From: TPA_inf: Saccharomyces | Lineage: Eukaryota | Reading direction: 5' to 3' | DNA length: 64,000 bases | Assembly: GCA_000146045.2 (NCBI GenBank) | Contig: BK006945.2 | Location: 608,001 to 672,000, forward strand | Shown: one piece after another, positions 3,754 through 49,775 of the stretch | Layout: every line of letters begins with the position of its first letter | Position numbering within the stretch: position 1 is the first letter of the stretch | Program-made: the position numbers and the translations under genes | Notes under the pieces: model-generated | The model's input: the letters and a program-made list of their open reading frames with translations, nothing else | Told to the model about the DNA's origin: nothing | Databases searched by the model: none

Positions 3754-4366
3754 GGCGTTTTTGCCGCCCTTTGTCTTCAAAAAAGCTCTCCGCTTAATTG
3801 CATGATTCAGCTGACTGCATATGTGCATTTTCAGTACCAGCCGCAACTGCATCAAACCATGCAGAAGTCGCCGCCACAGAAGCTCCAGCGCGCCGCGTAA
3901 ACGCATGTTGGAAGGCGCCCCAATTAGCATATTCACGCGCGACTACCAAACGCATAGGGAAGGTTTCAGAGAGCCGATGAGCAGCGGATGCACAGAGTAC
4001 GGCCATAAGGCTGCAAAGCGCTTGGCAGGAATGGGCGTTTTCTAGAGGTTGCCTTATTGATTTATATGGAAGAGGAGAGGATTCATCGATCGGGCTTCTA
4101 AGGCAAATAGTATGCATACCTTTTTCGGGTAGTTGAAGAGAAAAGAGGAAGAGAATAGAAAAAAAAAAAAAGCGAAATTTTTACATCCTCTATTGTAATG
4201 TAATTTCTTTTTTTTTATTAGGTATATATGTGAGATACAATTCTCGAAGTCATCGGGAAGCTTTACCATTTCATTTCCTATTCCAGAACTCATATTAGCA
4301 TCTATTGTTCTGAGATTCATCGCAACATCATTTAAAGGACTGTAGAGCCAATTGCATTATATCAAT

Positions 4367-20382: not shown

Positions 20383-20497
20383 GGTTGTTTGGCCGAGCGG
20401 TCTAAGGCGCCTGATTCAAGAAAATATCTTGACTGCAGTTAACTGTAGGAATACTCAGGTATCGTAAGATGCAAGAGTTCGAATCTCTTAGCAACCA
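20383..20497 (+). tRNA. tRNA-Leu(CAA) gene with a ~32-33 nt intron 3' of the anticodon (intron approx 20421-20453)
   Basis: GGTTGTTTGGCCGAGCGGTCTAAGGCGCCTGATTCAAG...CAGGTATCGTAAGATGCAAGAGTTCGAATCTCTTAGCAACCA matches the tRNA-Leu3 cloverleaf with D-loop, long variable arm, T-loop GTTCGAATC and acceptor stem GGTTGTT/AGCAACC; T5 terminator at 20501-20505. Confidence 0.9.
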
Positions 20498-38414: not shown

Positions 38415-41400
38415 ATGTCGAATACCCCTTATAATTCATCTGTGCCTTCCATTGCATCCATGACCCAGTCTTCGGTCTCAAGAAGTCCTAACATGCATAC
38501 AGCAACTACGCCCGGTGCCAACACCAGCTCTAACTCTCCACCCTTGCACATGTCTTCAGATTCGTCCAAGATCAAGAGGAAGCGTAACAGAATTCCGCTC
38601 AGTTGCACCATTTGTCGGAAAAGGAAAGTCAAATGTGACAAACTCAGACCACACTGCCAGCAGTGCACTAAAACTGGGGTAGCCCATCTCTGCCACTACA
38701 TGGAACAGACCTGGGCAGAAGAGGCAGAGAAAGAATTGCTGAAGGACAACGAATTAAAGAAGCTTAGGGAGCGCGTAAAATCTTTAGAAAAGACTCTTTC
38801 TAAGGTGCACTCTTCTCCTTCGTCTAACTCCTTGAAAAGTTACAACACTCCCGAGAGCAGCAACCTGTTTATGGGTAGCGATGAACACACCACCCTTGTT
38901 AATGCAAATACAGGCTCTGCTTCCTCTGCCTCGCATATGCATCAGCAACAACAGCAACAGCAGCAACAGGAACAACAACAAGACTTTTCCAGAAGTGCGA
39001 ACGCCAACGCGAATTCCTCGTCCCTTTCTATCTCAAATAAATATGACAACGATGAGCTGGACTTAACTAAGGACTTTGATCTTTTGCATATCAAAAGTAA
39101 CGGAACCATCCACTTAGGTGCCACCCACTGGTTGTCTATCATGAAAGGTGACCCGTACCTAAAACTTTTGTGGGGTCATATCTTCGCTATGAGGGAAAAG
39201 TTAAATGAATGGTACTACCAAAAAAATTCGTACTCTAAGCTGAAGTCAAGCAAATGTCCCATCAATCACGCGCAAGCGCCGCCTTCTGCCGCTGCCGCCG
39301 CTACCAGAAAATGTCCTGTTGATCACTCCGCGTTTTCGTCTGGCATGGTGGCCCCAAAGGAGGAGACTCCTCTTCCTAGGAAATGTCCAGTTGACCACAC
39401 CATGTTCTCTTCGGGAATGATTCCTCCCAGAGAGGACACTTCGTCCCAGAAGAGGTGTCCCGTTGACCACACCATGTATTCCGCAGGAATGATGCCGCCC
39501 AAGGACGAGACACCTTCCCCATTTTCCACTAAAGCTATGATAGACCATAACAAGCATACAATGAATCCGCCTCAGTCAAAATGTCCTGTGGACCATAGAA
39601 ACTATATGAAGGATTATCCCTCTGACATGGCAAATTCTTCTTCGAACCCGGCAAGTCGTTGCCCCATTGACCATTCAAGCATGAAAAATACAGCGGCCTT
39701 ACCAGCTTCAACGCACAATACCATCCCACACCACCAACCACAGTCCGGATCTCATGCTCGTTCGCATCCCGCACAAAGCAGGAAACATGATTCCTACATG
39801 ACAGAATCTGAAGTCCTCGCAACACTTTGTGAGATGTTGCCACCAAAGCGCGTCATCGCATTATTCATCGAGAAATTCTTCAAACATTTATACCCTGCCA
39901 TTCCAATCTTAGATGAACAGAATTTCAAAAATCACGTGAATCAAATGCTTTCGTTGTCTTCGATGAATCCCACAGTTAACAACTTTGGTATGAGCATGCC
40001 ATCTTCATCTACACTAGAGAACCAACCCATAACACAAATCAATCTTCCAAAACTTTCCGATTCTTGTAACTTAGGTATTCTGATAATAATCTTGAGATTG
40101 ACATGGCTATCCATACCTTCTAATTCCTGCGAAGTCGACCTGGGAGAAGAAAGTGGCTCATTTTTAGTGCCCAACGAATCTAGCAATATGTCTGCATCTG
40201 CATTGACCTCGATGGCTAAAGAAGAATCACTTCTGCTAAAGCATGAGACACCGGTCGAGGCACTGGAGCTATGTCAAAAATACTTGATTAAATTCGATGA
40301 ACTTTCTAGTATTTCCAATAACAACGTTAATTTAACCACGGTGCAGTTTGCCATTTTTTACAACTTCTATATGAAAAGTGCCTCTAATGATTTGACTACC
40401 TTGACAAATACCAACAACACTGGCATGGCCAATCCTGGTCACGATTCCGAGTCTCACCAGATCCTATTGTCCAATATTACTCAAATGGCCTTTAGTTGTG
40501 GGTTACACAGAGACCCTGATAATTTTCCTCAATTAAACGCTACCATTCCAGCAACCAGCCAGGACGTGTCTAACAACGGGAGCAAAAAGGCAAACCCTAG
40601 CACCAATCCAACTTTGAATAACAACATGTCTGCTGCCACTACCAACAGCAGTAGCAGATCTGGCAGTGCTGATTCAAGAAGTGGTTCTAACCCTGTGAAC
40701 AAGAAGGAAAATCAGGTTAGTATCGAAAGATTTAAACACACTTGGAGGAAAATTTGGTATTACATTGTTAGCATGGATGTTAACCAATCTCTTTCCCTGG
40801 GGAGCCCTCGACTACTAAGAAATCTGAGGGATTTCAGCGATACAAAGCTACCAAGTGCGTCAAGGATTGATTATGTTCGCGATATCAAAGAGTTAATCAT
40901 TGTGAAGAATTTTACTCTTTTTTTCCAAATTGATTTGTGTATTATTGCTGTATTAAATCACATTTTGAATGTTTCTTTAGCAAGAAGCGTGAGAAAATTT
41001 GAACTGGATTCATTGATTAATTTATTGAAAAATCTGACCTATGGTACTGAGAATGTCAATGATGTAGTGAGCTCCTTGATCAACAAAGGGTTATTACCAA
41101 CTTCGGAAGGTGGTTCTGTAGATTCAAATAATGATGAAATTTACGGTCTACCGAAACTACCCGATATTCTAAACCATGGTCAACATAACCAAAACTTGTA
41201 TGCTGATGGAAGAAATACTTCTAGTAGTGATATAGATAAGAAATTGGACCTTCCTCACGAATCTACAACGAGAGCTCTATTCTTTTCCAAGCATATGACA
41301 ATTAGAATGTTGCTGTACTTATTGAACTACATTTTGTTTACTCATTATGAACCAATGGGCAGTGAAGATCCTGGTACTAATATCCTAGCTAAGGAGTACG

Positions 41401-42923
41401 CTCAAGAGGCATTAAATTTTGCCATGGATGGCTACAGAAACTGCATGATTTTCTTCAACAATATCAGAAACACCAATTCACTATTCGATTACATGAATGT
41501 TATCTTGTCTTACCCTTGTTTGGACATTGGACATCGTTCTTTACAATTTATCGTTTGTTTGATCCTGAGAGCTAAATGTGGCCCATTGACTGGTATGCGT
41601 GAATCATCGATCATTACTAATGGTACATCAAGTGGATTTAATAGTTCGGTAGAAGATGAGGACGTCAAAGTTAAACAAGAATCTTCTGATGAATTGAAAA
41701 AAGACGATTTCATGAAAGATGTAAATTTGGATTCAGGCGATTCATTAGCAGAGATTCTAATGTCAAGAATGCTGCTATTTCAAAAACTAACAAAACAACT
41801 ATCAAAGAAGTACAACTACGCTATTCGTATGAACAAATCCACTGGATTCTTTGTCTCTTTACTAGATACACCTTCAAAGAAATCAGACTCGAAATCGGGT
41901 GGTAGTTCATTCATGTTGGGTAATTGGAAACATCCAAAGGTTTCAAACATGAGCGGATTTCTTGCTGGTGACAAAGACCAATTACAGAAATGCCCCGTGT
42001 ACCAAGATGCGCTGGGGTTTGTTAGTCCAACCGGTGCTAATGAAGGTTCTGCTCCGATGCAAGGCATGTCCTTACAGGGCTCTACTGCTAGGATGGGAGG
42101 GACCCAGTTGCCACCAATTAGATCATACAAACCTATCACGTACACAAGTAGTAATCTACGTCGTATGAATGAAACGGGTGAGGCAGAAGCTAAGAGAAGA
42201 AGATTTAATGATGGCTATATTGATAATAATAGTAACAACGATATACCTAGAGGAATCAGCCCAAAACCTTCAAATGGGCTATCATCGGTGCAGCCACTAT
42301 TATCGTCATTTTCCATGAACCAGCTAAACGGGGGTACCATTCCAACGGTTCCATCGTTAACCAACATTACTTCACAAATGGGAGCTTTACCATCTTTAGA
42401 TAGGATCACCACTAATCAAATAAATTTGCCAGACCCATCTAGAGATGAAGCATTTGACAACTCCATCAAGCAAATGACGCCTATGACAAGTGCATTCATG
42501 AATGCTAATACTACAATTCCAAGTTCAACTTTAAACGGGAATATGAACATGAATGGAGCTGGAACTGCGAATACAGATACAAGTGCCAACGGCAGTGCTT
42601 TATCGACACTGACAAGCCCACAAGGCTCAGACTTAGCATCCAATTCTGCTACACAGTATAAACCTGACTTAGAAGACTTTTTGATGCAAAATTCTAACTT
42701 TAATGGGCTAATGATAAATCCTTCCAGTCTGGTAGAAGTTGTTGGTGGATACAACGATCCTAATAACCTTGGAAGAAATGACGCGGTTGATTTTCTACCC
42801 GTTGATAATGTTGAAATTGATGGTGTTGGAATAAAAATCAACTATCATCTACTAACTAGTATTTACGTTACTAGTATATTATCATATACGGTGTTAGAAG
42901 ATGACGCAAATGATGAGAAATAG
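38415..42923 (+). CDS. HAP1: Heme-activated Zn2Cys6 transcription factor Hap1, Ty1-disrupted allele (1502 aa; last 32 codons plus stop, roughly 42825-42923, read from the Ty1 LTR)
   Basis: Zn2Cys6 cluster (CTICRKRKVKCDKLRPHCQQC) at 38604-38693, polyQ, six K/R-CP-V/I-DH heme-regulatory motifs at 39252-39674 and a seventh at 41988-42005; the ORF continues 100 bp into the 5' LTR sequence that begins at 42824. Confidence 0.95.
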   Translation: MSNTPYNSSVPSIASMTQSSVSRSPNMHTATTPGANTSSNSPPLHMSSDSSKIKRKRNRIPLSCTICRKRKVKCDKLRPHCQQCTKTGVAHLCHYMEQTWAEEAEKELLKDNELKKLRERVKSLEKTLSKVHSSPSSNSLKSYNTPESSNLFMGSDEHTTLVNANTGSASSASHMHQQQQQQQQQEQQQDFSRSANANANSSSLSISNKYDNDELDLTKDFDLLHIKSNGTIHLGATHWLSIMKGDPYLKLLWGHIFAMREKLNEWYYQKNSYSKLKSSKCPINHAQAPPSAAAAATRKCPVDHSAFSSGMVAPKEETPLPRKCPVDHTMFSSGMIPPREDTSSQKRCPVDHTMYSAGMMPPKDETPSPFSTKAMIDHNKHTMNPPQSKCPVDHRNYMKDYPSDMANSSSNPASRCPIDHSSMKNTAALPASTHNTIPHHQPQSGSHARSHPAQSRKHDSYMTESEVLATLCEMLPPKRVIALFIEKFFKHLYPAIPILDEQNFKNHVNQMLSLSSMNPTVNNFGMSMPSSSTLENQPITQINLPKLSDSCNLGILIIILRLTWLSIPSNSCEVDLGEESGSFLVPNESSNMSASALTSMAKEESLLLKHETPVEALELCQKYLIKFDELSSISNNNVNLTTVQFAIFYNFYMKSASNDLTTLTNTNNTGMANPGHDSESHQILLSNITQMAFSCGLHRDPDNFPQLNATIPATSQDVSNNGSKKANPSTNPTLNNNMSAATTNSSSRSGSADSRSGSNPVNKKENQVSIERFKHTWRKIWYYIVSMDVNQSLSLGSPRLLRNLRDFSDTKLPSASRIDYVRDIKELIIVKNFTLFFQIDLCIIAVLNHILNVSLARSVRKFELDSLINLLKNLTYGTENVNDVVSSLINKGLLPTSEGGSVDSNNDEIYGLPKLPDILNHGQHNQNLYADGRNTSSSDIDKKLDLPHESTTRALFFSKHMTIRMLLYLLNYILFTHYEPMGSEDPGTNILAKEYAQEALNFAMDGYRNCMIFFNNIRNTNSLFDYMNVILSYPCLDIGHRSLQFIVCLILRAKCGPLTGMRESSIITNGTSSGFNSSVEDEDVKVKQESSDELKKDDFMKDVNLDSGDSLAEILMSRMLLFQKLTKQLSKKYNYAIRMNKSTGFFVSLLDTPSKKSDSKSGGSSFMLGNWKHPKVSNMSGFLAGDKDQLQKCPVYQDALGFVSPTGANEGSAPMQGMSLQGSTARMGGTQLPPIRSYKPITYTSSNLRRMNETGEAEAKRRRFNDGYIDNNSNNDIPRGISPKPSNGLSSVQPLLSSFSMNQLNGGTIPTVPSLTNITSQMGALPSLDRITTNQINLPDPSRDEAFDNSIKQMTPMTSAFMNANTTIPSSTLNGNMNMNGAGTANTDTSANGSALSTLTSPQGSDLASNSATQYKPDLEDFLMQNSNFNGLMINPSSLVEVVGGYNDPNNLGRNDAVDFLPVDNVEIDGVGIKINYHLLTSIYVTSILSYTVLEDDANDEK

Positions 42924-43157
42924 TCATCTAAATTAGTGGAAGCTGAAACGCAAGGATTGATAATGTAATAGGATCAATGAATATTAACATATAAAACGAT
43001 GATAATAATATTTATAGAATTGTGTAGAATTGCAGATTCCCTTTTATGGATTCCTAAATCCTCGAGGAGAACTTCTAGTATATTCTGTATACCTAATATT
43101 ATAGCCTTTATCAACAATGGAATCCCAACAATTATCTCAACACCCACACATTTCTCA
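42824..43157 (+). repeat. Ty1 5' LTR (delta), 334 bp
   Basis: Direct repeat of 48410-48743; contains the TYA ATG at LTR nt 294. Confidence 0.95.
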
Positions 43158-44439
43158 TGGTAGCGCCTGTGCTTCGGTTACTTCTAAGGAAGTCCACACA
43201 AATCAAGATCCGTTAGACGTTTCAGCTTCCAAAACAGAAGAATGTGAGAAGGCTTCCACTAAGGCTAACTCTCAACAGACAACAACACCTGCTTCATCAG
43301 CTGTTCCAGAGAACCCCCATCATGCCTCTCCTCAACCTGCTTCAGTACCACCTCCACAGAATGGGCCGTACCCACAGCAGTGCATGATGACCCAAAACCA
43401 AGCCAATCCATCTGGTTGGTCATTTTACGGACACCCATCTATGATTCCGTATACACCTTATCAAATGTCGCCTATGTACTTTCCACCTGGGCCACAATCA
43501 CAGTTTCCGCAGTATCCATCATCAGTTGGAACGCCTCTGAGCACTCCATCACCTGAGTCAGGTAATACATTTACTGATTCATCCTCAGCGGACTCTGATA
43601 TGACATCCACTAAAAAATATGTCAGACCACCACCAATGTTAACCTCACCTAATGACTTTCCAAATTGGGTTAAAACATACATCAAATTTTTACAAAACTC
43701 GAATCTCGGTGGTATTATTCCGACAGTAAACGGAAAACCCGTACGTCAGATCACTGATGATGAACTCACCTTCTTGTATAACACTTTTCAAATATTTGCT
43801 CCCTCTCAATTCCTACCTACCTGGGTCAAAGACATCCTATCCGTTGATTATACGGATATCATGAAAATTCTTTCCAAAAGTATTGAAAAAATGCAATCTG
43901 ATACCCAAGAGGCAAACGACATTGTGACCCTGGCAAATTTGCAATATAATGGCAGTACACCTGCAGATGCATTTGAAACAAAAGTCACAAACATTATCGA
44001 CAGACTGAACAATAATGGCATTCATATCAATAACAAGGTCGCATGCCAATTAATTATGAGAGGTCTATCTGGCGAATATAAATTTTTACGCTACACACGT
44101 CATCGACATCTAAATATGACAGTCGCTGAACTGTTCTTAGATATCCATGCTATTTATGAAGAACAACAGGGATCGAGAAACAGCAAACCTAATTACAGGA
44201 GAAATCTGAGTGATGAGAAGAATGATTCTCGCAGCTATACGAATACAACCAAACCCAAAGTTATAGCTCGGAATCCTCAAAAAACAAATAATTCGAAATC
44301 GAAAACAGCCAGGGCTCACAATGTATCCACATCTAATAACTCTCCCAGCACGGACAACGATTCCATCAGTAAATCAACTACTGAACCGATTCAATTGAAC
44401 AATAAGCACGACCTTCACCTTAGGCCAGGAACTTACTGA
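43117..44439 (+). CDS. TYA: Ty1 TYA (Gag), 440 aa
   Basis: [17 protein letters not shown]... Gag sequence; +1 frameshift heptamer CTTAGGC at 44419-44425 near the 3' end. Confidence 0.9.
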
Positions 44440-47400
44440 ATCTACGGTAAATCACACTAATCATTCTGATGATGAACTCCCTGGACACCTCCTTCTCGAT
44501 TCAGGAGCATCACGAACCCTTATAAGATCTGCTCACCACATACACTCAGCATCATCTAATCCTGACATAAACGTAGTTGATGCTCAAAAAAGAAATATAC
44601 CAATTAACGCTATTGGTGACCTACAATTTCACTTCCAGGACAACACCAAAACATCAATAAAGGTATTGCACACTCCTAACATAGCCTATGACTTACTCAG
44701 TTTGAATGAATTGGCTGCAGTAGATATCACAGCATGCTTTACCAAAAACGTCTTAGAACGGTCTGACGGCACTGTACTTGCACCTATCGTAAAATATGGA
44801 GACTTTTACTGGGTATCTAAAAAGTACTTGCTTCCATCAAATATCTCCGTACCCACCATCAATAATGTCCATACAAGTGAAAGTACACGCAAATATCCTT
44901 ATCCTTTCATTCATCGAATGCTTGCGCATGCCAATGCACAGACAATTCGATACTCACTTAAAAATAACACCATCACGTATTTTAACGAATCAGATGTCGA
45001 CTGGTCTAGTGCTATTGACTATCAATGTCCTGATTGTTTAATCGGCAAAAGCACCAAACACAGACATATCAAAGGTTCACGACTAAAATACCAAAATTCA
45101 TACGAACCCTTTCAATACCTACATACTGACATATTTGGTCCAGTTCACAACCTACCAAATAGTGCACCATCCTATTTCATCTCATTTACTGATGAGACAA
45201 CAAAATTCCGTTGGGTTTATCCATTACACGACCGTCGCGAGGACTCTATCCTCGATGTTTTTACTACGATACTAGCTTTTATTAAAAACCAGTTTCAGGC
45301 CAGTGTCTTAGTTATACAAATGGACCGTGGTTCTGAGTATACTAACAGAACTCTCCATAAATTCCTTGAAAAAAAAATGGTATAACTCCATGCTATACAA
45401 CCACAGCGGATTCCCGAGCACATGGAGTCGCTGAACGGCTAAACCGTACCTTATTAGATGACTGCCGTACTCAACTGCAATGTAGTGGTTTACCGAACCA
45501 TTTATGGTTCTCTGCAATCGAATTTTCTACTATTGTGAGAAATTCACTAGCTTCACCTAAAAGCAAAAAATCTGCAAGACAACATGCTGGCTTGGCAGGA
45601 CTTGATATCAGTACTTTGTTACCTTTCGGTCAACCTGTTATCGTCAATGATCACAACCCTAACTCCAAAATACATCCTCGTGGCATCCCAGGCTACGCTC
45701 TACATCCGTCTCGAAACTCTTATGGATATATCATCTATCTTCCGTCCTTAAAGAAGACAGTAGATACAACTAACTATGTTATTCTTCAGGGCAAGGAATC
45801 CAGATTAGATCAATTCAATTACGACGCACTCACTTTCGATGAAGACTTAAACCGTTTAACTGCTTCATATCATTCGTTCATTGCGTCAAATGAGATCCAA
45901 GAATCCAATGATCTTAACATAGAATCTGACCATGACTTCCAATCCGACATTGAACTACATCCTGAGCAACCGAGAAATGTCCTTTCAAAAGCTGTGAGTC
46001 CAACCGATTCCACACCTCCGTCAACTCATACTGAAGATTCGAAACGTGTTTCTAAAACCAATATTCGCGCACCCAGAGAAGTTGACCCCAACATATCTGA
46101 ATCTAATATTCTTCCATCAAAGAAGAGATCTAGCACCCCCCAAATTTCCAATATCGAGAGTACCGGTTCGGGTGGTATGCATAAATTAAATGTTCCTTTA
46201 CTTGCTCCCATGTCCCAATCTAACACACATGAGTCGTCGCACGCCAGTAAATCTAAAGATTTCAGACACTCAGACTCGTACAGTGAAAATGAGACTAATC
46301 ATACAAACGTACCAATATCCAGTACGGGTGGTACCAACAACAAAACTGTTCCGCAGATAAGTGACCAAGAGACTGAGAAAAGGATTATACACCGTTCACC
46401 TTCAATCGATGCTTCTCCACCGGAAAATAATTCATCGCACAATATTGTTCCTATCAAAACGCCAACTACTGTTTCTGAACAGAATACCGAGGAATCTATC
46501 ATCGCTGATCTCCCACTCCCTGATCTACCTCCAGAATCTCCTACCGAATTCCCTGACCCATTTAAAGAACTCCCACCGATAAATTCTCGTCAAACTAATT
46601 CCAGTTTGGGTGGTATTGGTGACTCTAATGCCTATACTACTATCAACAGTAAGAAAAGATCATTAGAAGATAATGAAACTGAAATTAAGGTATCACGAGA
46701 CACATGGAATACTAAGAATATGCGTAGTTTAGAACCTCCGAGATCGAAGAAACGAATTCACCTGATTGCAGCTGTAAAAGCAGTAAAATCAATCAAACCA
46801 ATACGGACAACCTTACGATACGATGAGGCAATCACCTATAATAAAGATATTAAAGAAAAAGAAAAATATATCGAGGCATACCACAAAGAAGTCAATCAAC
46901 TGTTGAAGATGAAAACTTGGGACACTGACGAATATTATGACAGAAAAGAAATAGACCCTAAAAGAGTAATAAACTCAATGTTTATCTTCAACAAGAAACG
47001 TGACGGTACTCATAAAGCTAGATTTGTTGCAAGAGGTGATATTCAGCATCCTGACACTTACGACTCAGGCATGCAATCCAATACCGTACATCACTATGCA
47101 TTAATGACATCCCTGTCACTTGCATTAGACAATAACTACTATATTACACAATTAGACATATCTTCGGCATATTTGTATGCAGACATCAAAGAAGAATTAT
47201 ACATAAGACCTCCACCACATTTAGGAATGAATGATAAGTTGATACGTTTGAAGAAATCACTTTATGGATTGAAACAAAGTGGAGCGAACTGGTACGAAAC
47301 TATCAAATCATACCTGATACAACAATGTGGTATGGAAGAAGTTCGTGGATGGTCATGCGTATTTAAAAACAGTCAAGTGACAATTTGTTTATTCGTAGAT

Positions 47401-48387
47401 GATATGGTATTGTTTAGCAAAAATCTAAATTCAAACAAAAGAATTATAGAGAAGCTTAAGATGCAATACGACACCAAGATTATAAATCTAGGCGAAAGTG
47501 ATGAGGAAATTCAATATGACATACTTGGCTTAGAAATCAAATATCAAAGAGGTAAATACATGAAATTAGGTATGGAAAACTCATTAACTGAGAAAATACC
47601 CAAATTAAACGTACCTTTGAATCCAAAAGGAAGAAAACTTAGCGCTCCAGGTCAACCAGGTCTTTATATAGACCAGGATGAACTAGAAATAGATGAAGAT
47701 GAATACAAAGAGAAGGTACATGAAATGCAAAAGTTGATTGGTCTAGCTTCATATGTTGGATATAAATTTAGATTTGACTTACTATACTACATCAACACAC
47801 TTGCTCAACATATACTATTCCCCTCTAGGCAAGTTTTAGACATGACATATGAGTTAATACAATTCATGTGGGACACTAGAGATAAACAATTAATATGGCA
47901 CAAAAACAAACCTACCAAGCCAGATAATAAACTAGTCGCAATAAGCGATGCTTCATATGGTAACCAACCATATTACAAGTCACAAATTGGTAACATTTTC
48001 CTACTCAACGGAAAAGTGATTGGAGGAAAGTCGACAAAGGCTTCGTTAACATGCACTTCAACTACAGAAGCAGAAATACACGCAGTCAGTGAAGCTATAC
48101 CGCTATTGAATAACCTCAGTCACCTTGTGCAAGAACTTAACAAGAAACCAATTATTAAAGGCTTACTTACTGATAGTAGATCAACGATCAGTATAATTAA
48201 GTCTACAAATGAAGAGAAATTTAGAAACAGATTTTTTGGCACAAAGGCAATGAGACTTAGAGATGAAGTATCAGGTAATAATTTATACGTATACTACATC
48301 GAGACCAAGAAGAACATTGCTGATGTGATGACAAAACCTCTTCCGATAAAAACATTTAAACTATTAACAAACAAATGGATTCATTAG
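44423..48387 (+). pseudogene. TYB: Ty1 TYB (Pol: PR-IN-RT-RNaseH) reading frame, disrupted by a frameshift at the A9 run 45369-45377 inside the integrase catalytic core
   Basis: The +1 frame after CTTAGGC encodes protease and integrase (HHCC, D..D) up to ...[10 protein letters not shown] with a stop at 45383-45385; the remaining IN/RT/RNaseH ([20 protein letters not shown]...KWIH) continues in a different frame (track ORF 45535-48387). Confidence 0.8.
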
Positions 48388-48409
48388 ATCTATTACATTA
48401 TGGGTGGTA

Positions 48410-48743
48410 TGTTGGAATAAAAATCAACTATCATCTACTAACTAGTATTTACGTTACTAGTATATTATCATATACGGTGTTAGAAGATGACGCAAATGAT
48501 GAGAAATAGTCATCTAAATTAGTGGAAGCTGAAACGCAAGGATTGATAATGTAATAGGATCAATGAATATTAACATATAAAACGATGATAATAATATTTA
48601 TAGAATTGTGTAGAATTGCAGATTCCCTTTTATGGATTCCTAAATCCTCGAGGAGAACTTCTAGTATATTCTGTATACCTAATATTATAGCCTTTATCAA
48701 CAATGGAATCCCAACAATTATCTAATTACCCACAAATTTCTCA
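48410..48743 (+). repeat. Ty1 3' LTR (delta), 334 bp
   Basis: Identical to the 5' LTR over the first ~309 bp; 4 mismatches in the last 25 bp. Confidence 0.95.
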
Positions 48744-48748
48744 GATGG

Positions 48749-48791: not shown

Positions 48792-48933
48792 TGCGGTTTG
48801 TTTATGTATAAATAGAAAGGGACATATTTTTATTATTATTATTTTAGTTATTTAGCATGTATGTTATTTTATCGGTGAATTGTAATGATCGAATAATAAT
48901 TGGAGGTTGAAGAAGTTGCAAAAAATATTTACT

Positions 48934-49006
48934 TGGACGAGTCCGGAATCGAACCGGAGACCTCTCCCATGCTAAGGGAGCGCGCTACCGACTACGCCAC
49001 ACGCCC
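48934..49006 (-). tRNA. tRNA-Ala(AGC)
   Basis: Reverse complement GGGCGTGTGGCGTAGTCGGTAGCGCGCTCCCTTAGCATGGGAGAGGTCTCCGGTTCGATTCCGGACTCGTCCA: G3:U70 acceptor pair, anticodon AGC, T-loop GGTTCGATTCC; downstream T-run (plus-strand AAAAAA 48920-48925). Confidence 0.92.
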
Positions 49007-49022
49007 AATTTTCTTGTTGTCT

Positions 49023-49448: not shown

Positions 49449-49775
49449 TGTTGGAATGAAGGCCTAGTATTGTCTATTGACTAATATTCATCTTACTAGT
49501 ATATTATCATATACAGTGTAAGAAGATGGCATAAAGATTGAGAACCAGTCATCAGACTAATGAAAGCTGAAATGCAAGGACTGATAATGTAATGGGATAA
49601 TGAAATATATAAAACGGAAGGAGAAATAACCGTGATATTATTATGTAGATTTACCGACTCCACTTGGAGGATTTCTCTATTCTCGAGGGAAACTTGGTAT
49701 ATTCGTACACCTAATATTATAGCTCTTGATAACAATGAAATTTCAACAATTATTCACTCAACCCTCAAGTGTATA
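49449..49775 (+). repeat. Solo delta (Ty1/Ty2 LTR), diverged, same orientation as the Ty1
   Basis: TGTTGGAATGAAGG...ACTAGTATATTATCATATAC.GTGT.AGAAGATG...GAAAGCTGAAATGCAAGGA.TGATAATGTAAT.GGAT.AATGAA...CTCGAGG..AACTT..TATATTC.TA.ACCTAATATTATAGC..TT.A.AACAATG is colinear with the Ty1 LTR at 42824; ~440 bp upstream of tRNA-Ala; 3' end approximate. Confidence 0.65.

Follow-up and report, generated by a model that had tools for sequence, protein, structure and literature searches.

A two-base expansion of an A run interrupts TYB in the Ty1 element at HAP1 of S288C

The DNA analyzed here is a stretch of 64,000 nucleotides from Saccharomyces (contig BK006945.2, positions 608,001 to 672,000), hereafter the window, to which all coordinates refer. 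It contains the HAP1 gene, a Ty1 element into which the HAP1 reading frame runs, a tRNA-Ala(AGC) gene and a solo delta beyond the element, and a further tRNA gene. The features considered in this study are the following.

20383–20497, plus strand: tRNA of 115 nt, long enough to hold an intron (Rfam; ARAGORN was run and did not report it)
38415–42923, plus strand: HAP1 open reading frame of the S288C type, 1502 aa, an exact match to NP_013357.1
42819–42823, plus strand: left copy of the target-site duplication, GATGG, the same pentamer as at the right end
42824–43157, plus strand: 5' LTR (delta), 334 bp, with TG…CA ends, identified as a direct repeat
43117–44439, plus strand: TYA (Gag), 440 aa, intact (Pfam TYA, E = 1.7e-232)
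43158–43167, plus strand: primer-binding site TGGTAGCGCC, directly 3' of the 5' LTR, read in the sequence
44419–44425, plus strand: +1 ribosomal frameshift heptamer CTTAGGC in the Gag frame, with CTT as codon 435, read in the sequence
44423–45385, plus strand: first part of TYB, encoding protease and integrase residues 1–170, then K-M-V and a stop (translation; Pfam Pol_BBD and rve)
45369–45377, plus strand: A9 run, the lesion, a +2 expansion of the canonical A7
45376–48387, plus strand: remainder of TYB, encoding integrase from N171 including E190, the SH3-like domain, reverse transcriptase (RT) and RNase H (translation; Pfam RVT_2 and SH3_retrovirus)
45383–45385, plus strand: premature TAA stop in the TYB frame (translation)
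48402–48409, plus strand: polypurine tract GGGTGGTA, adjoining the 3' LTR, read in the sequence
48410–48743, plus strand: 3' LTR (delta), 334 bp, identified as a direct repeat
48744–48748, plus strand: right copy of the target-site duplication, GATGG, matching the left copy
48933–49007, minus strand: tRNA-Ala(AGC) gene, 189 bp beyond the 3' LTR
49449–49762: solo delta that has diverged to 75% identity with the LTR, approximately 440 bp upstream of the tRNA-Ala(AGC) gene

The last 100 nt of the HAP1 open reading frame (42824–42923) lie within the 5' LTR of the Ty1. Through residue 1470, S288C Hap1p is identical to the 1483-aa allele, the length of most other HAP1 cluster members listed; the last 13 residues of that allele are replaced by 32 encoded by the LTR. 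The association of a Ty1 with HAP1, proposed in a first-pass annotation made from the sequence, is confirmed by this reading frame, which corresponds to the hap1 allele already known from S288C. A Ty1 insertion has been named as the cause of hap1 in S288C-derived strains (Gaisne et al., 1999, as cited in PMC3511429); the passage on this allele in PMC3511429 describes the same insertion and is concerned with its effect on HAP1, not with the coding state of the Ty1. The element is located on the 3' side of the tRNA-Ala(AGC) gene and not on the usual upstream side. The tRNA at 20383–20497 is presumably a tRNA-Leu(CAA), judging by its sequence.

The HAP1 Ty1, which we take to be the element that SGD names YLRWTy1-3, with YLR256W-A as its TYA, is 5920 bp long from LTR to LTR. 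It shows the organization expected of a Ty1, a Ty1/copia-type LTR retrotransposon of the Pseudoviridae: LTRs bounded by a target-site duplication, TYA leading into TYB via CUU-AGG-C, domains in the order protease (PR), integrase (IN), RT and RNase H, and both a primer-binding site (PBS) and a polypurine tract (PPT). We assume from established knowledge of Ty1 that TGGTAGCGCC is the tRNA-iMet primer site. Both TYA and the slip site are intact, as the first-pass annotation had stated, judging from the open reading frame and from the position of the heptamer in the Gag frame. The octamer GGGTGGTA, the core of the polypurine tract, occurs 4 times in the element (46170, 46326, 46608, and 48402) and 6 times in the window, versus 0.8 expected, and the one at 46608 (element position 3785) probably represents the internal polypurine tract.

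Between the two LTRs, 330 of 334 positions are identical. The four mismatches all fall in a 12-bp stretch at the U5 end (LTR positions 315, 317, 318, and 326; 43138–43149 versus 48724–48735), where the 5' LTR encodes Gag residues 8–11 as QHPH and the 3' LTR would give NYPQ. As LTRs should be identical at birth, this clustering suggests a gene-conversion patch or a heteroduplex of two co-packaged RNAs, not random decay.

Within TYB, we examined the A run in the integrase part, where the sequence reads …cat aaa ttc ctt gaa aaa aaa atg gta taa ctc…; this A9 run is the only homopolymer of at least 7 nt in the whole element. Starting at the GGC at 44423, after the +1 slip, the TYB frame comprises 320 Pol-frame codons before the TAA and ends in …FLEKKMV*. 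The remainder of TYB, beginning NGITP…, is offset by 2 nt from the first part and is open for 1003 codons to …LTNKWIH*, with its stop at 48385–48387. After in silico removal of two A residues, Pol is free of stops over 1320 aa and Gag-Pol reaches 1755 aa, the same length as the intact Ty1 Gag-Pol proteins that are annotated in S288C. As it stands, the element lacks the uninterrupted TYB frame that yields a 1755-aa Gag-Pol in an autonomous Ty1. These results bear out the first-pass annotation, which had described an A9 run at the break, a stop at 45383–45385 and a Pol remainder open in another frame to KWIH; all its positions and sequence strings are correct, and translation from 45376 reproduces the open remainder.

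We compared the run with the equivalent site in other Ty1 copies. The controls were a copy from another strain (L002), two metagenome contigs (L004 and L007, the latter reached via a Gag match) and a Ty1 on the same chromosome in assembly GCA_016858165.1 (L006, reached via the Pol-only gene model P0034). All four other copies for which DNA was fetched have A7 (ccttg-A7-tggtataac, with the codons gaa aaa aat), which substantiates the earlier proposal of a 2-bp expansion of A7. At the protein level, the spacing of HKF(L/F)xxxGIT is identical in all 19 Ty1/Ty2-family proteins fetched. The autonomous S288C Ty1 elements read …FLEKNGITP… without a break, whereas the HAP1 Ty1 has A9 and a stop. The possibility that the run is a conserved recoding signal was rejected: programmed recoding would call for a conserved slippery run with use of both frames, and the other copies have A7 and are read straight through.

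Among the sequences compared, A9 was seen only at the HAP1 locus and in one short metagenome contig of approximately 1.5 kb (L005, LAFL01000792.1, positions 1–1546), which aligns to 44107–45651 of the window. The contig and the window differ at 10 positions, all upstream of 45311, and an additional A in the contig, corresponding to window 44585, breaks its protease frame. Either several Ty1 copies were merged into a chimera during short-read assembly, or the contig represents a second copy bearing A9.

The length of the run is taken from two assemblies and this contig. Since homopolymer length is generally error-prone, and since the run lies approximately 2.5 kb from unique flanks within a repeat family, where short reads cannot place it unambiguously, A9 might be a miscall or an assembly artefact, the true element having A7 and being autonomous. 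However, an independent S288c assembly, GCA_016858165.1 (chromosome of 1,106,478 bp), contains an identical 5920-bp element with A9, not A7, at HAP1, and differs from the window at 1 base in 24,509. This assembly is one of five public S288c assemblies that were handled as separate in a benchmarking paper. The occurrence of the identical A9 in it makes a sequencing error unlikely. It also distinguishes A9 at HAP1 from A7 in L006 on one and the same chromosome, and hence there is no systematic inflation of the A run. Moreover, the metagenome contig likewise has A9, database curators retained the frameshift and labeled the protein a putative pseudogene, and an artefact would have to be +2, a rarer error than ±1. 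We therefore regard an artefact as extremely unlikely.

We are highly confident that the HAP1 Ty1 carries a genuine germ-line expansion from A7 to A9 in the integrase part of TYB, and that the element is non-autonomous and would be mobilized only in trans. Slippage on the A run, by reverse transcriptase or a replicative polymerase, is the probable source of the two additional residues. This may have taken place as RT slippage at the birth of the copy or as later replication slippage, or the run may have been inherited from an A9 parent.

To locate the break with respect to the domains of Pol, Pfam was run on the repaired protein and on the truncated Pol, and the catalytic residues were placed by alignment to the integrase of prototype foamy virus (PFV). 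In the repaired Gag-Pol we identified Pol_BBD (459–533), rve (663–763), SH3_retrovirus (829–890), and RVT_2 (1281–1487); RNase H motifs at 1607–1732 and the VDD of RT are also present. The protease motif DSG (461–463) is upstream of the break and intact, and the HAP1 Ty1 is in that respect not Pol-null. The rve core is split, with profile positions 3–89 of 102 before the stop. According to the PFV alignment, the integrase triad consists of D89, D154, and E190 (Gag-Pol 671, 736, and 772), D154 and E190 being separated by 35 residues; normal sequence extends through integrase K170 (Gag-Pol K752). The earlier placement of the break, after the second Asp but before the Glu in the DD35E triad, holds: D89 and D154 precede the stop and E190 follows it, so that the three catalytic carboxylates are not on one polypeptide. 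The predicted frameshift product is a 755-aa protein of approximately 85 kDa, Gag-PR-IN(1–170)-KMV, compared with 1755 aa and approximately 199 kDa for Gag-Pol. From translation and Pfam, this product would stop short of the catalytic Glu and have neither the SH3-like and C-terminal regions of integrase nor RT or RNase H. The truncated product had no match in the protein collection.

Residues 1–308 of the repaired integrase (44864–45373 joined to 45376–45789) are the same as the 'Integrase' chain of PDB entry 7z0h. The match covers an N in HNLPNSAP that is less common, most copies having K, and the integrase of that structure thus has the N-terminal sequence of the HAP1 Ty1.

The earlier claim that no functional IN or RT can be made in cis is upheld for standard decoding; it is qualified by the observation that slippage by a single A, giving A10, would restore the frame. 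A leaky or reversible tract would work in this way: if RNA polymerase II or RT slipped by one A, or if ribosomes shifted equivalently, Pol would be restored with the sequence …FLEKKNGITP…, so that some functional Pol would be made and repaired progeny could arise. In silico, A10 does give a stop-free Pol of 1321 aa with one extra Lys, and a single-step change suffices. There is also precedent in other systems, as homopolymer slippage and compensatory frameshifting have been documented for the 'savior indel' in the G-run of herpesvirus TK (PMC5009743). However, we found nothing in this element that supports such leakiness. An extra residue in the integrase core is without natural precedent, given the uniform spacing in all 19 family proteins, and no conserved recoding signal is present, the other copies having A7. 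In addition, nine A residues are near the lower limit for appreciable slippage, which counts against it further. We consider leaky expression from the tract improbable. Likewise, there is only a slim chance that the A9 run acts as a reversible switch, in which A10, generated by RNA polymerase II or by RT in a trans-assisted cycle, restores Pol at the cost of one additional Lys in the integrase core. If it did, this Ty1, called the most expressed in S288C by one paper (PMC11258251), would occasionally make its own Pol or seed repaired daughters, while mostly it would be a net source of Gag and the Gag-derived restriction factor but not of Pol.

Under standard decoding, Gag would be translated normally from the mRNA of the element, and ribosomes that shift +1 at CUU-AGG-C would read protease and 170 integrase residues, then Lys-Met-Val and the stop. 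Without RT and IN, the HAP1 Ty1 is not expected to transpose alone, nor to carry out reverse transcription or integration by itself. The sequences required in cis (the 5' approximately 380 nt of the RNA, PBS, PPT, and 3' LTR; requirement as in PMC5454406) are all present. A mini-Ty1 reduced to 380 nt at its 5' end and 357 nt at its 3' end is able to transpose with Gag and Pol provided in trans (PMC5454406). Given that Ty1 proteins act in trans and that the HAP1 Ty1 has its LTRs, PBS, PPT and 5' region intact, its RNA is expected to be mobilizable by other copies; it would be packaged and copied by the proteins of other genomic Ty1 elements, and the element would still feed Gag and protease into the cellular pool. 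On the basis of its sequence, the HAP1 Ty1 is most likely non-autonomous and mobilizable only in trans, and the interrupted TYB frame supports the first-pass annotation on this point. It resembles helper-dependent mini-Ty1 and Pol-defective donors, which likewise keep the cis-acting ends, miss their own RT and IN, and are expected to depend on trans-acting proteins (PMC5454406). Unlike these engineered donors, it is a natural, full-length, chromosomal copy in which Gag and protease are intact and the lesion is a 2-bp insertion, not a deletion, and its mobilization in trans is inferred.

The element could also be wholly dead, if extra defects in cis or in Gag blocked mobilization even in trans, and the four clustered differences at the U5 ends of the LTRs might be taken to point that way. 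Against this, PBS, PPT, the TG…CA termini, the Gag open reading frame and the slip site are all intact. Throughout the element, read in the repaired frame, no further stops were seen beyond the TAA in TYB, and no residue of the repaired Gag-Pol is private to the HAP1 Ty1 in comparison with 11 other Ty1 proteins; a second inactivating lesion elsewhere was rejected on these grounds. Furthermore, PMC11258251 uses this element as a representative Ty1 and calls it the most expressed one. Complete inactivity is, in our view, very unlikely.

The repaired 1755-aa Gag-Pol is an exact match to UniProt/Swiss-Prot P0C2I7, 'Transposon Ty1-LR4 Gag-Pol polyprotein', and the Gag of the window agrees exactly with NP_058173.1, 'Transposon Ty1-LR4 Gag polyprotein'. 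The matches of Hap1p and Gag identify the window as the HAP1 region of chromosome XII in S. cerevisiae S288C. Ty1-LR4 is the same object as the HAP1 Ty1, and the Swiss-Prot entry is a conceptual repair of the identical frameshift, without any differences. The title of P0C2I7 in nr opens with 'PUTATIVE PSEUDOGENE', and the entry is linked to no annotated contig; other S288C Ty1 Gag-Pol proteins bear NP_ or DAA accessions. In the genome annotations we found no Gag-Pol for the HAP1 Ty1, only the Gag protein NP_058173.1, and the annotation of GCA_016858165.1 calls TYA alone inside the element. The question raised in the first-pass annotation, whether only TYA is annotated for this copy, is thus answered positively, the repaired Gag-Pol existing solely as Swiss-Prot P0C2I7. 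Together, the exact match to P0C2I7, the putative-pseudogene flag and the Gag-only annotation mean that the defect was already known: it is real, ordinary, and already recorded in curated databases for S288C. A literature search for the TYB frameshift of the HAP1 Ty1 or for YLR256W-A found no paper, and two reviews (PMC7175516, PMC10951436) are silent on TYB of this element.

The value of the result is mainly one of bookkeeping, in that the reference Ty1 that cripples HAP1 in S288C-derived laboratory strains is a Pol pseudogene by a single 2-bp expansion; it makes no open question newly testable. In SGD, TYB of this copy is noted as mutant and probably non-functional. The defect bears on models of the cellular Gag:Pol balance, as this copy gives Gag and protease and no RT or integrase. 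In the passage that introduces it, PMC11258251 calls the HAP1 Ty1 'a representative Ty1 element' and the most expressed Ty1 (citing Morillon et al., 2002). If the latter is correct, the most expressed copy adds Gag and protease, but neither RT nor IN, to the cellular pool. Caution is needed when the element is used as a 'representative' Ty1, as was done for the Gag region in that paper.

Finally, we compared the repaired protein with those of autonomous S288C Ty1 elements (Ty1-JR1, -JR2, -GR2, and -ER1 Gag-Pol, 1755 aa). After repair, the architecture, slip site and catalytic motifs are common to all, and identity at the protein level, taken over 150-residue windows, lies between 86% and 100%, most windows reaching at least 94%. 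The closest Ty1 copy switches along the protein of the HAP1 Ty1, a mosaic pattern as expected from Ty1/Ty2 and inter-Ty1 recombination. At the C-terminus of Pol (window 47500–48387), the last approximately 105 residues show 100% identity with a Ty2 Pol (P0004) and with Ty1-GR2, and just 88–95% with several other Ty1 copies.
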